Source of the DNA: a virus
Reading direction: 5' to 3' (one strand)
Length of the DNA: 64,000 nucleotides
IMG/VR virus record: IMGVR_UViG_3300033145_003080
Span: 85,038-149,037 of that record
Under the pieces are notes generated by a model, which was given only the letters and a program-made list of their open reading frames with translations, did not search any database and was not told the origin of the DNA. Position 1 is the first letter of the stretch. Every line of letters begins with the position of its first letter. Position numbers and translations under genes: made by a program. Below are positions 49,560 to 55,015 of the stretch, piece by piece.

Positions 49560-49590
49560 AAACAGCAAACGGGGATAAAATCCCCGTCGC
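49560..49590 (-). terminator. Intrinsic terminator closing the ubiquitin-like operon
   Basis: ACGGGGAT-TTT-ATCCCCGT hairpin followed by TTGCTGTTT on the - strand. Confidence 0.7.
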
Positions 49591-49622
49591 CATTCTATCA
49601 AAAGTTAATATACAGCTTAAAG

Positions 49623-50099
49623 CTAATTGCCTTTTACCTTTTGAGAAAGAATAATCCTTAACACATCACCGGTCGGACGTTCAAGCTTTTCAGAAAGCTC
49701 AACCTTGCGAGTTCCGATACGGTATTCATATGCAGGGCTACCGTCAGCATGGGTAAAAGTTTTTTTCTTATCCATGTCAAGTTGGTCAACAACTTCCTGG
49801 ATCGTCATACCAGGAGTAGCGGGTAATTTCTCAATTCCACCGCCTGCACCCATCCGAATAAGTTGCACTTCGAATGGTTCATCGTTTCCTTTGGTCTTTG
49901 TTCCAAGAAAGACCTTCTCATTATTATAAAGCCGGGTCGTTTTTTGTACCTCTACACCATTACGGGTTATGGTGTAATTTTCAGGAAGCGTGACGTTAGC
50001 AGCGTCAAACAGCCCCTGAACAGTTGGGTTGTCAGAAATCTCAAGGTCTTTGATCTCTTTGCCCATCTGAATGAGTTTTACGCAAATCATATATAGCAA
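49623..50099 (-). CDS. Tandem ubiquitin-like (beta-grasp) protein; two Ubl domains each ending KxKGN
   Basis: Domain 1 VKLIQMG...TVQGLFD...ITRNG...VFLGTKTKGN (aa 1-72); domain 2 VQLIRMG...TIQEVVD...IILSQKVKGN (aa 73-158); adjacent to E1 and JAB genes. Confidence 0.82.
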   Translation of the reverse strand: MLYMICVKLIQMGKEIKDLEISDNPTVQGLFDAANVTLPENYTITRNGVEVQKTTRLYNNEKVFLGTKTKGNDEPFEVQLIRMGAGGGIEKLPATPGMTIQEVVDQLDMDKKKTFTHADGSPAYEYRIGTRKVELSEKLERPTGDVLRIILSQKVKGN

Positions 50100-50130
50100 A
50101 AGCCCTTTCGTAAATTAATTGTTAATTGAA

Positions 50131-51884: not shown

Positions 51885-53009
51885 TTACCCTTCAGTAGGT
51901 GCAACCGGCCAAAATTTCAAATGACTGCCCCACGAGTCTTCGGGATTCGGAGATTTAATAAATCTGATTAAAGATTCGGTTATGTATGAAAGGTCTCTTG
52001 AAACTATCGCATCAAAAATATGCTCAAAAGCTGTTCCATAACAAGAATTACCATTACTTTTGATATGACCACATTCCCAAATCCGACCGGAATTTGAAGC
52101 ATATCGATGTGTAAGATTTCTTATCGATATTGCCCCTTTGTCTTTAGTTGGGTTAGGGGAAAATAAAGCTTCAAGACGCACACCAAGCCTCATGCTCCCT
52201 ATAAACCTACGATGGCCATCCCAATTATCATCAGTTACCAATGGGTGGGTAACAATAACGACTTCAACATCTGTAAAGTAAACACGTTCAACAGGTTCGA
52301 ATTCGTCTGCCAATCTGTTCGCCTGATCAACAATATTAATAATAGCAGGACTGTTCTCAGAAAGTTGTTGAGTTGCTTCCTCAATTTTTCTTTTCAAAGC
52401 TGTCGCAGTATTGAAATGGTTATTAAACTGCCTGATAGATTCATCAAGCTGTTTTGTGATATTTATACTTTCATCGCCGACAATTTGTGCCACTGTAGAA
52501 TACACATTATTATTATTTTCGATTACAGTTTCCTGTACTTCTGCCGGCCCAATCATAATGTTATGAGGTGGTGGTTCTTGCACTACTTGGGGTTCCTGTG
52601 TTTCTTGTGCCTCTTCTCGAGGCCGCTGTGGTATCTCCTCCGCTTGACGAGGCTCTTCATCAGCAATTTCTGCAGCTCCGTCTTCCATTAGGGCTGCTTC
52701 ATCCTCATGAGTATTGTCAAGATTTATGCCATCATGTCCGGCTTCAGCTTCGACAGGCGCATCCCCGGGTTCCGCCGTCTCTTCTTCGCCGACATCAACA
52801 ACAACTGAACTGCCTGTTGTTATGAAATTAACAACTCCATCATATCTCTCTGACAATATCTCACGAGCTTCTTCAAGTCTGGGTTCATCTATGCCGACTT
52901 GAATCGTATGATCAGTACCTTCATTGATTTCGTTCATGATATTGAACAGCGCTTCTGGTATAGTATCCATAGTGAAGCCCAATGCAGGTTTAATGAACAA
53001 TGTTAACAA
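51885..53009 (-). CDS. Prokaryotic E2/UBC-like protein B (acidic linker, coiled coil, C-terminal E2-like domain)
   Basis: GHIKSNGNSCYG matches the E2 H-x(3-4)-G-x-x-C signature, followed by helices and NPEDSWG...WP; AGGAGG RBS. Confidence 0.7.
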   Translation of the reverse strand: MLTLFIKPALGFTMDTIPEALFNIMNEINEGTDHTIQVGIDEPRLEEAREILSERYDGVVNFITTGSSVVVDVGEEETAEPGDAPVEAEAGHDGINLDNTHEDEAALMEDGAAEIADEEPRQAEEIPQRPREEAQETQEPQVVQEPPPHNIMIGPAEVQETVIENNNNVYSTVAQIVGDESINITKQLDESIRQFNNHFNTATALKRKIEEATQQLSENSPAIINIVDQANRLADEFEPVERVYFTDVEVVIVTHPLVTDDNWDGHRRFIGSMRLGVRLEALFSPNPTKDKGAISIRNLTHRYASNSGRIWECGHIKSNGNSCYGTAFEHIFDAIVSRDLSYITESLIRFIKSPNPEDSWGSHLKFWPVAPTEG

Positions 53010-53026
53010 ATAAACCCTCCTATTAA

Positions 53027-54970
53027 TTAAATGTGAACTGGTATCGCTTCTGCAAGCGTTTTATCAAACTTCTCTTCTGCTTTAGCAATCTGATGCATCA
53101 CTTCATACAAAGCATTGTCATTATTATTTTGGCTCAATGCAACTTCTTCAGAAACTTCAGGCCACTTATTAACTTTTTCACCTGCCGAGTCTGACGTATT
53201 TGCTGATTCCAAAAATAATAATATTTGATATATTAATTCAAACAAATTGCGTCTTTTGTACGCATCTGTCATACCGCTCGCAAGATTTCCATGACAAATA
53301 TGGCCATCCTGCCATGCATGTGGCGCATTCATTATTGAACCGTTTGAAGAAGTTTTTATTTGATGTTTGGTATTTTTTATATTCACAGTCTGCTCTTGAT
53401 TGTAAGAGTTGTTATGCATCCCAAGGGTAATATGGAACGTTCCTATATCATGCCAGTGGCTGGTTCTTTCGTCCTGCGCGTATATATTATGAGTATATAC
53501 ATGGACAATATTGTCTTTGACAGTTACCATACTTATTTTATCAAGAGCTAATGTTTCATCGTAATTTTTATTTGCCTTCTCACGCTCATCAATAAGAAAT
53601 TTCTCTTCATTAAAATATTGTATCTGGTCATGGAAGCGTTGAAACATTTTGGCATGCTCAAGTGCCTGTTCGAGATGCTCTTTATATTTTTTTTGATGCT
53701 CATCACGCTTATCTTTTATTTGGTCGGTTATTACTTTTGAGCTACTTATGGCAAAATTAATATATTCCTCTCTATTGTTTTCATGTCTTTTTTCTGTATA
53801 TTTAGCATCAATTTTAACAAGTTCTGTATATGGTAAAGAGTTTCCAAACCTTTTGATAAATTCTTCATAGGCAATTTTATAAAAAGTCTTATTTTTTCCT
53901 GTAGAATAAGGAACAAGAAAATAAATCATACATCGGTCTTTTACTGCCCATATTACATTGGTAATAGTATCTTTATAAATACCATCATATTTGTATATAG
54001 GAGAATTTTTTCGGTTATTTATAACCTCATCAATTTTAAGCCTTTTTGCCTCTGGGTTTAATTCAAGGTCTCTCCTAATTTTATTTATTATATCATTCTC
54101 ATGACACGAGCCAGTAATACAATATATCTCATCAATTTCGTAACCAAAACATGATGCTTTTGCGTTCTCAGTGAGATTAAAAGTAGAGCCTGGCAATGCG
54201 TGTATAAAAAAGAGAACATCTTTTGACAAACCAGCCATATTAAATTTATTTTTCAGAGCAGTGATTAAATTTGTTGTATGGTCCACATTGTTAATATAGA
54301 ATATGCTTTTGCCGATTGATTTTGCAATATTGGCAATTTCTTCAAACTGCTGTTCGCTAAAATTGATATCATATATTACAACTCTGACCTCTTCTTCTTC
54401 ATAAACAGCATCCTGTGTAATATTTGTGTAGGTTCCATAATGCTCTTTCAAATCTTCGAACAAGGCATTAACCATAGCGAGTTTTTGTGAAACTTTCTTT
54501 TCTTCTTCAATTGGCACCTCAATTGGAACCGCTTCTTCTTCTATAGCCGCATCGTCACTATCGACAGTTACCGGAGTTGCTTCAGCCGGCGCATTACACT
54601 CATTTAAAATAGCAGCTTCGATATCTGCAAGAACAAACCTTACACCACTTGGGCCTATTGCGAATATATTTAGATATGTATCTGTTGCTTTTGCAACTTC
54701 TCCTGTAAGGTCGTTTAACAAATTGTCATCAACCCAATATCGATGAATTGCTATTTTCATACCATGAACAGTCGAATCTTGTATGTTAGGCTTAAGGGCT
54801 TCATCTTTATCAAGATTTTGCCATAGATCAAAAACGGTATTAAATGCTATGTTGAATCCATCCTGATCAACAGCAGCGACGACAGAACCGTTCTCTAAAC
54901 CATATTCAAAAAATTCGATCTTGATAAGTTTGGCGAGCCAAATTTCAACAAAACCATAAGTTTGATTCAT
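53027..54970 (-). CDS. Prokaryotic E2/UBC-like protein A (large N-terminal domains, coiled coil, C-terminal E2-like domain)
   Basis: APHAWQDGHICHGN E2-type active-site motif, then LIYQILLFLESANTSDSAG...WP; AAGGAGG RBS. Confidence 0.75.
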   Translation of the reverse strand: MNQTYGFVEIWLAKLIKIEFFEYGLENGSVVAAVDQDGFNIAFNTVFDLWQNLDKDEALKPNIQDSTVHGMKIAIHRYWVDDNLLNDLTGEVAKATDTYLNIFAIGPSGVRFVLADIEAAILNECNAPAEATPVTVDSDDAAIEEEAVPIEVPIEEEKKVSQKLAMVNALFEDLKEHYGTYTNITQDAVYEEEEVRVVIYDINFSEQQFEEIANIAKSIGKSIFYINNVDHTTNLITALKNKFNMAGLSKDVLFFIHALPGSTFNLTENAKASCFGYEIDEIYCITGSCHENDIINKIRRDLELNPEAKRLKIDEVINNRKNSPIYKYDGIYKDTITNVIWAVKDRCMIYFLVPYSTGKNKTFYKIAYEEFIKRFGNSLPYTELVKIDAKYTEKRHENNREEYINFAISSSKVITDQIKDKRDEHQKKYKEHLEQALEHAKMFQRFHDQIQYFNEEKFLIDEREKANKNYDETLALDKISMVTVKDNIVHVYTHNIYAQDERTSHWHDIGTFHITLGMHNNSYNQEQTVNIKNTKHQIKTSSNGSIMNAPHAWQDGHICHGNLASGMTDAYKRRNLFELIYQILLFLESANTSDSAGEKVNKWPEVSEEVALSQNNNDNALYEVMHQIAKAEEKFDKTLAEAIPVHI

Positions 54971-55015
54971 TTTAGTATTATCCTCCTTAAATAAAGAATA
55001 CTGTTTACATTATAG

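Follow-up and report, generated by a model that had tools for sequence, protein, structure and literature searches.

Prokaryotic ubiquitin-like conjugation, as known from Bil, Bub and Cap2 of CBASS, is described in the literature that we searched (open-access papers and preprints) as anti-phage host defence alone. Type I and Type II Bil operons (BilABCD) encode a ubiquitin-like protein (Ubl), an E2, a JAB peptidase and an E1, and no E3 (PMC11601596, PMC11601603, PMC10557695). On the side of the viruses, the sole phage case in a 2006 survey of prokaryotic ubiquitin-like systems was the lambdoid tail-assembly Ubl, which occurs together with a JAB (PMC1779556), and a 2021 survey of jumbo phages makes no mention of ThiF, JAB or Ubl (PMC7824862). 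Here we describe a five-gene operon located in the final 64 kb of the IMG/VR virus record IMGVR_UViG_3300033145_003080; this stretch of 64,000 nt, which was analysed as a whole, is called the window below. The operon probably represents a virus-encoded ubiquitin-like conjugation pathway that is expressed with phage replication genes. A description of a phage-owned operon combining E1, E2, JAB and Ubl was not found in the literature searched.

The closest known system is Bil. The operon resembles it in its set of components, in the lack of an E3 and in Cys-based catalysis, which is predicted for the operon from its sequence. Further, Type I Bil Ubls mostly consist of two beta-grasp domains and are ISG15-like (PMC11601603), as is the Ubl of the operon. 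However, Bil is a bacterial anti-phage system, whereas the operon is virus-owned and lies in a replication module. Its E1 is minimal, with 253 amino acids (aa), one ThiF domain and the Cys in the crossover-loop region. It has two E2-like proteins, which belong to a family without a Pfam or PADLOC model, and its tag units end in Lys-Gly-Asn and look cleavable into single units.

In Bub (6E/DUF6527), cleavage of the precursor by the JAB gives the functional Ubl, and the Ubls comprise one to three beta-grasp domains (PMC11601596); comparable processing would apply to the two-domain Ubl of the operon. Bub relies on Ser/Tyr oxyesters and has no catalytic cysteines (PMC11601596), whereas the cysteines in the operon are invariant. 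In an ESM Atlas structure search, the JAB of the operon resembles JAB-E1 fusion proteins, but unlike in Bub, the genes of the operon are separate. The DUF6527 serine protease (PF20137) of Bub was not found in the record. Type II CBASS Cap2/Cap3 has similar E1, E2 and JAB chemistry, and the E1 domain of the operon matches the PADLOC E1-E2 models. In contrast to Type II CBASS, the operon has a dedicated beta-grasp tag and no E2-E1 fusion, and the CD-NTase of CBASS was not found in the record.

Organization of the operon

The source record is a single contig of 149,037 bp with inverted terminal repeats, which is about 80% complete according to CheckV. The five genes are co-oriented on the minus strand and occupy positions 49623-54970 of the window. 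The starts of the JAB, E1 and Ubl genes were set at the ATGs used by relatives. The operon has the following features:

53027-54970, minus strand: P1, long E2-like protein, 647 aa
51885-53009, minus strand: P2, short E2-like protein, 374 aa, TTG start
50894-51877, minus strand: JAB/JAMM metallopeptidase, 327 aa from the ATG of relatives
50131-50892, minus strand: minimal ThiF/MoeB-type E1, 253 aa from the ATG
49623-50090, minus strand: putative two-unit ubiquitin-like precursor (Ubl), 155 aa from the ATG
49568-49588, minus strand: terminator-like hairpin, about 35 nt past the Ubl stop codon

From P1 to Ubl, the intergenic gaps measure 17, 7, 1 and 40 nt. These coordinates and gaps, together with a check of the motifs, confirm the five co-oriented and tightly packed genes reported in an earlier note, which a model had made from the sequence without database searches. 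That the operon is closed by an intrinsic terminator, as also stated there, holds in part: the hairpin at 49568-49588 exists and has a 9-bp stem with five GC pairs, but it is followed by TGCTGTTTAG, and this T tract is imperfect and weak. The designation of the virus as a jumbo phage (over 200 kb) goes beyond what the record shows, given its length and degree of completeness; related contigs are 175-217 kb long.

Conservation of the gene set in related viruses

Four IMG/VR loci retrieved with P2 harbour all five genes in identical order. Since this arrangement recurs in related viral contigs, the gene set is not a product of chance. In these loci the identity is 72-83% for E1, 51-79% for Ubl, 46-57% for P1, 46-54% for JAB and 33-59% for P2. 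A scan with the long-form family yielded 19 IMG/VR loci on 17 distinct contigs, which measure 15-217 kb; contigs already found with P2 account for four of the 19, and the genes were called by local hidden Markov models (HMMs). An E2-like gene, JAB and E1 were present together in all 19 loci (17 contigs) and Ubl in 16 of them, and the exact order long E2, short E2, JAB, E1, Ubl was found in 14 loci on 12 contigs. The operon behaves like core genome and not like cargo.

The remaining loci show variants of the order. One E2-like gene is combined with a triple Ubl in the 187-kb viral contig of locus L022, the order E2-JAB-E1-Ubl-E2 was found in L024, and Ubl was undetected in L025 and L026. The 188-kb viral contig of L023 (L023:1-10403) carries two modules about 3 kb apart, one with an E2-like gene, E1 and a Ubl ending in KGA, and the other with an E2-like gene, JAB and E1. 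Apart from these loci, in L027:6216-8414 (plus strand), on a 14-kb contig binned with an Obscuribacterales metagenome-assembled genome, a single protein with two tandem E2-like domains is followed by a 550-aa JAB and E1. The second E2-like domain of this protein keeps the Cys and has lost the conserved His. The existence of this fusion suggests that the two E2 domains act together.

Among GenBank phages, no match was obtained with the operon region by megablast, or with P1, P2 and two distant family members by tblastn, and single-protein IMG/VR scans with three distant family members also gave no match. The crAss-like phage cr106_1 (L003:2015-6444) and the Flavobacterium phage FpV4 (L002:2566-6727) contain, in this order, genes for an unassigned protein, a Prok-JAB protein and ThiF. 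Their ThiF and Prok-JAB genes lie inside replication modules, and the invariant Cys is retained in their E1. Both loci may represent the same type of module in a distant form with a diverged E2; the genes upstream of JAB in both phages were considered as E2-like candidates and were rejected, as they show no similarity to the E2-like profile. In Xanthomonas jumbo phages, a gene for an 892-aa protein is found beside ThiF; in PhiXhv-15 (L001:2322-5875) it is located directly upstream of ThiF and a 70-aa open reading frame (ORF). This protein weakly matches the H...G..C.G and F..P..D motifs (hhalign probability 1.9%), and among 188 ORFs it gave an hmmsearch E value of 0.004 against the E2-like profile. 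It is thus a lead, not a finding, and weakly points to PhiXhv-15 as a cultivable candidate relative.

The ubiquitin-like precursor

The Ubl protein is modelled by AlphaFold (AF2) as two beta-grasp domains (pLDDT 85.7), and its best Foldseek matches are ISG15, linear di-ubiquitin and FAT10 (E about 1e-7, probability 1.0). Its two units are located as follows:

49884-50090, minus strand: Ubl unit 1, ends in Lys-Gly-Asn
49626-49883, minus strand: Ubl unit 2, ends in Lys-Gly-Asn

In 19 Ubl homologues, the sequence KGN is invariant at the end of both units, and between 0 and 17 variable residues come after the C-terminal KGN; 11 of the 19 end exactly at Asn. One homologue matches Pfam ThiS. In L022:10474-11148 (plus strand), the Ubl consists of three near-identical beta-grasp units, each ending in PIKGN, and the Ubl units of L023 end in KGA instead of KGN. 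Tandem units ending in KGN fit a polyubiquitin-like precursor, in which cleavage would expose the Gly. Eukaryotic polyubiquitin genes are similarly built from head-to-tail tag units capped by an extra residue, without a detectable sequence relation to the operon; yeast polyubiquitin, for example, is composed of head-to-tail units and ends in Gly-Gly-Asn.

E1 and the JAB peptidase

The E1 protein matches Pfam ThiF (E 3.4e-19), and in the PDB it is matched by UBA6 (active adenylation domain) and by ThiF of E. coli. The protein is built of one adenylation domain, carries the motifs GVGATGS and SACGAS, and lacks CxxC. Cys180 (codon 50353-50355) is in the crossover-loop region. An alignment of the orthologues with distant ThiFs of crAss-like, Flavobacterium and Xanthomonas phages revealed as invariant the N-terminal Arg (R5), GxGxxG, DxD, K78, D117 and C180. 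The ThiF/MoeB/E1 adenylating enzymes are characterised by a Rossmann GxGxxG, DxD, a conserved Lys and a Mg-binding Asp, and the E1 of the operon agrees with this pattern.

In the JAB protein, the JAMM motif HxHx7SxxD reads HKHPHGSTSPSGQD and is encoded at positions 51506-51547. The upstream Glu and the His, His, Ser and Asp of the motif are invariant across four phages, and the protein is extended by a long tail at its C-terminus. Support from HMMs is weak (PADLOC JAB, E 0.027). The nearest ESM Atlas clusters are JAB / PF14464 (Prok-JAB) and mostly viral (score 0.95), and JAB-ThiF fusions are among the structure neighbours.

The E2-like proteins P1 and P2

P1 and P2 are paralogous over their C-terminal 220 residues (BLASTP 3e-12; hhalign E 2.5e-50), and the genome of the record holds exactly two copies of this E2-like domain. 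In P1, residues 1-390 have no recognisable fold and are followed by a helical stretch and by the UBC-like domain at approximately 440-610 (window 53141-53653), with the motif region PHAWQDGHICHGN and the candidate catalytic Cys559 (codon 53294-53296). In P2, a small ferredoxin-like alpha/beta domain (residues 1-75; Z about 7, VIA-align) and an acidic disordered linker precede the UBC-like domain at residues 215-372 (window 51894-52367), in which the motif region reads GHIKSNGNSCYGT and the key residues are His315, Cys323 (52041-52043) and Asp358. The possibility of a second, degenerate E2-like domain in P1 was rejected (hhalign probability under 1%). For the N-terminal 385 residues of P1, no usable ESM Atlas match was obtained, and 72 long homologues gave no Pfam match.

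At E <= 1e-3, the profile of the E2-like domain detects 1866 metagenomic cluster representatives among 1.84 billion proteins, and most family members measure either about 350 or about 620 aa, which gives two size classes. The family is uncatalogued in Pfam, PHROG and PADLOC: P1, P2 and 154 family members have no consistent match to a Pfam family, P1 and P2 have no PHROG or PADLOC match, and the known prokaryotic E2 families (Pfam Prok-E2_A to E and the PADLOC E2 models) do not significantly match P1 and P2. Searches of the PDB with sequence profiles returned noise alone for the E2-like domain, and likewise for JAB.

An AF2 model of P2, built with an alignment of 82 sequences, has a pLDDT of 80.7 overall and about 95 over the domain, in which a helix, strands and helices follow each other as in the UBC core, where an N-terminal helix is followed by a four-stranded antiparallel sheet and by C-terminal helices. 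When the domain was compared with the PDB by Foldseek, the top 50 matches were nearly all E2s (best E 0.02, probability 0.97), with TM scores by target of 0.45-0.49 for the E2 matches. A VIA-align search of 48,161 chains found the E2s UbcH10, UBE2S, UBE2D2 and Ube2K with Z 6.1-6.8 over 115-127 residues, which covers the UBC core almost completely; the scores of RWD and kinetochore UBC-like domains in this search are as high as those of true E2s. Because of the consistency of the hit lists and the gene context, we assign the C-terminal domains of P1 and P2 to the UBC/E2 fold, an assignment supported by the predicted model.

Conservation was analysed in 199 family domains drawn from the cluster representatives and the fetched loci. 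In P2 numbering, Cys323 is present in all 199 domains, His315 and Asp358 in 196 each, and Thr254, Gly271 and Asn298 in 196, 198 and 194, respectively. The arrangement His315-x7-Cys323 lies directly before the helix 325-336. In E2s, the catalytic Cys follows a conserved His by about 8-10 residues and is placed between the sheet and helix 2, and the arrangement in P2 may correspond to this.

The four types of components were each identified independently, and the results agree with what the earlier note had read from the motifs, namely a JAB with an intact JAMM, a ThiF/E1 with GxGxxG and the Cys of SACG and lacking CxxC, a protein with two beta-grasp domains and a UBC fold expected in both E2 candidates. 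Its remark that the di-Ubl layout is not recognised from described systems has to be corrected in view of the Type I Bil Ubls (PMC11601603).

Genomic neighbourhood

Directly upstream of the operon, a further gene was found:

55016-55342, minus strand: VRR-NUC-like small nuclease gene, 108 aa, 45 nt upstream of P1

Its matches are to Pfam VRR_NUC (E 0.005, below the cut-off) and to a PHROG endonuclease (1.8e-5). In each of the 14 canonical-order loci, the VRR-NUC-like gene directly precedes the long E2-like gene, and its conservation exceeds that of P1 and P2. It may be a sixth member of the operon, a substrate, or merely a syntenic neighbour. On the same strand it is accompanied upstream by genes for RNase H, a helicase and a DNA polymerase/exonuclease. 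These same-strand replication genes place the operon at the end of a replication module, in line with its previously proposed location among DNA-metabolism genes.

Downstream, a 126-aa ORF without family match (window 49159-49539, minus strand) is located between the hairpin of the operon and a strong bidirectional terminator at 49138-49159; it is kept solely in the two closest relatives (32-38% identity). A TnpB/IS605-type transposase-like gene (window 47931-49097, plus strand; PHROG 506, 1e-40) lies between this downstream neighbour and a convergent 694-aa gene. Since the homologue of the 694-aa gene follows directly in L004, L005 and L007, the TnpB/IS605-type gene is an insertion specific to this phage. 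It has two further distant copies in the genome, with 24-27% identity.

Proposed pathway and alternative explanations

From the folds, the motifs and their conservation, and the gene linkage we infer cleavage of the precursor, a thioester relay, pairing of the E2-like proteins and modification of targets. JAB would cleave the precursor between Gly and Asn of each Lys-Gly-Asn, so that the C-terminal Gly of the tags is exposed. This Gly would be adenylated by the single-domain E1, which probably forms a homodimer as ThiF and MoeB do, and the tag would be loaded onto Cys180 as a thioester. From there it would move to the invariant Cys of the E2-like proteins (Cys559 in P1 and Cys323 in P2). Targets would be chosen by the unrelated N-terminal regions of P1 and P2; like Bil, the operon encodes no E3. 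P1 and P2 probably work as a pair, and JAB may also remove the tag. In the Ubc13-UEV pair, too, two UBC-fold proteins cooperate, and for the operon such cooperation is suggested by linkage and by one fusion. However, both E2-like proteins of the operon keep their Cys, which UEV has lost, and there is no detectable sequence relation to this pair. As to the role of the pathway, we guess that it modifies proteins of the host or of the phage in connection with DNA metabolism or defence.

Several points weigh against this interpretation. E1 lacks the Arg of the NLxRQ motif, which reads NLCNQ, and it has no ubiquitin-fold domain to recruit an E2. The Asn of the HPN motif of E2s is absent from its usual place in the E2-like family, and the match to the E2 fold is middling (Z 6-7, Foldseek E 0.02) and comes from a predicted model. 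Most Ubl homologues end at Asn, so the mature end could be Asn and not Gly. In addition, absences are weak evidence in a record that is about 80% complete.

Alternatively, the phage could use the operon for a defence of the Bil kind, in which structural proteins of competitor phages are tagged for superinfection exclusion, and not proteins of the host or of the phage itself. Bil has the same parts list (two-beta-grasp Ubl, E2, JAB and E1) and acts by tagging a phage tail protein (PMC11601596, PMC11601603, 10.1101/2023.09.04.556158). However, defence cargo of phages is usually patchy, whereas the operon is fixed and syntenic in the replication module of every relative examined; moreover, it is unrelated in sequence to the Bil models of PADLOC for E2 and Ubl, and the architecture of its E1 is unlike that of Bil. 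We therefore regard inter-phage warfare as rather unlikely. Somewhat harder to accept is that no third party is conjugated at all, so that Ubl, E1 and JAB act on the E2-like proteins, or the UBC/RWD-like domains are non-catalytic scaffolds. The operon would then serve assembly or regulation, comparable to the Ubl and JAB of lambda tail assembly, and lambdoid Ubl and JAB pairs without conjugation have been proposed (PMC1779556). The high scores of the RWD and kinetochore domains mentioned above would be compatible with this, but the Cys found in every family domain and the near-invariant His and Asp favour catalysis, and the genes are in the replication module and not in a tail module.

A function of the Ubl as a sulfur carrier appears very improbable. 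In this case E1 would thiocarboxylate the Ubl to deliver sulfur for a modified nucleotide or cofactor, as with ThiS, MoaD and TtuB. The match of one Ubl homologue to Pfam ThiS, the minimal ThiF/MoeB type of the E1 and the DNA-metabolism neighbourhood, which would suit modification of nucleic acids, are consistent with such a function. On the other hand, no PP-loop thiolase, rhodanese, MoaE or ThiG was found in the 149-kb record (about 80% complete); the absence of nearby thiamine or molybdopterin genes, already stated in the earlier note, thus extends to thiolation partners. Furthermore, the E2-like genes are always linked to the module, whereas known sulfur relays have no E2, and we know of no sulfur carriers with tag units in polyubiquitin-like tandem. 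We consider it extremely improbable that the E1 activates the terminal Asn, like the ThiF-like MccB, which acts on the terminal Asn of the microcin C7 peptide. The product would be a succinimide or a nucleotidylated end and not a Gly thioester. It would account for the 11 of 19 Ubl homologues ending exactly at Asn, but the others have 1-17 extra residues past the Asn, L023 has Gly-Ala instead of Gly-Asn, and the E2-like proteins and the internal K-G-N would be left unexplained.

Taken together, the folds, motifs and linkage support the proposal of the earlier note that the phage encodes a protein-tagging pathway of its own, as far as predicted structures and sequences allow. Going beyond the single operon, we see about even chances that large uncultured phages possess a self-contained, Cys-based ubiquitination cascade which tags host or phage proteins during replication. 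Its parts would be a polyubiquitin-like precursor, a JAB for processing and deconjugation, a minimal E1 and two E2s of a new family that work as an obligate pair.

Significance

The operon is important for several reasons. If our interpretation is true, it would be, to our knowledge, the first complete pathway of E1, E2, Ubl and deubiquitinase owned by a prokaryotic virus. Ubl chemistry of the type used in host defence would be placed in the hands of a virus, possibly as a counter-measure to Ubl-based defence of the host. The operon is a conserved and fixed part of the phage replication module, and its E2-like family, with about 1,900 metagenomic clusters, is unrecognised by domain databases. 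Further, its five genes form a compact system, with a minimal E1 and no E3, in which the choice of targets by E2s and the origin of polyubiquitin-type precursors can be studied. Last but not least, it raises the testable questions of what phages tag, and why.

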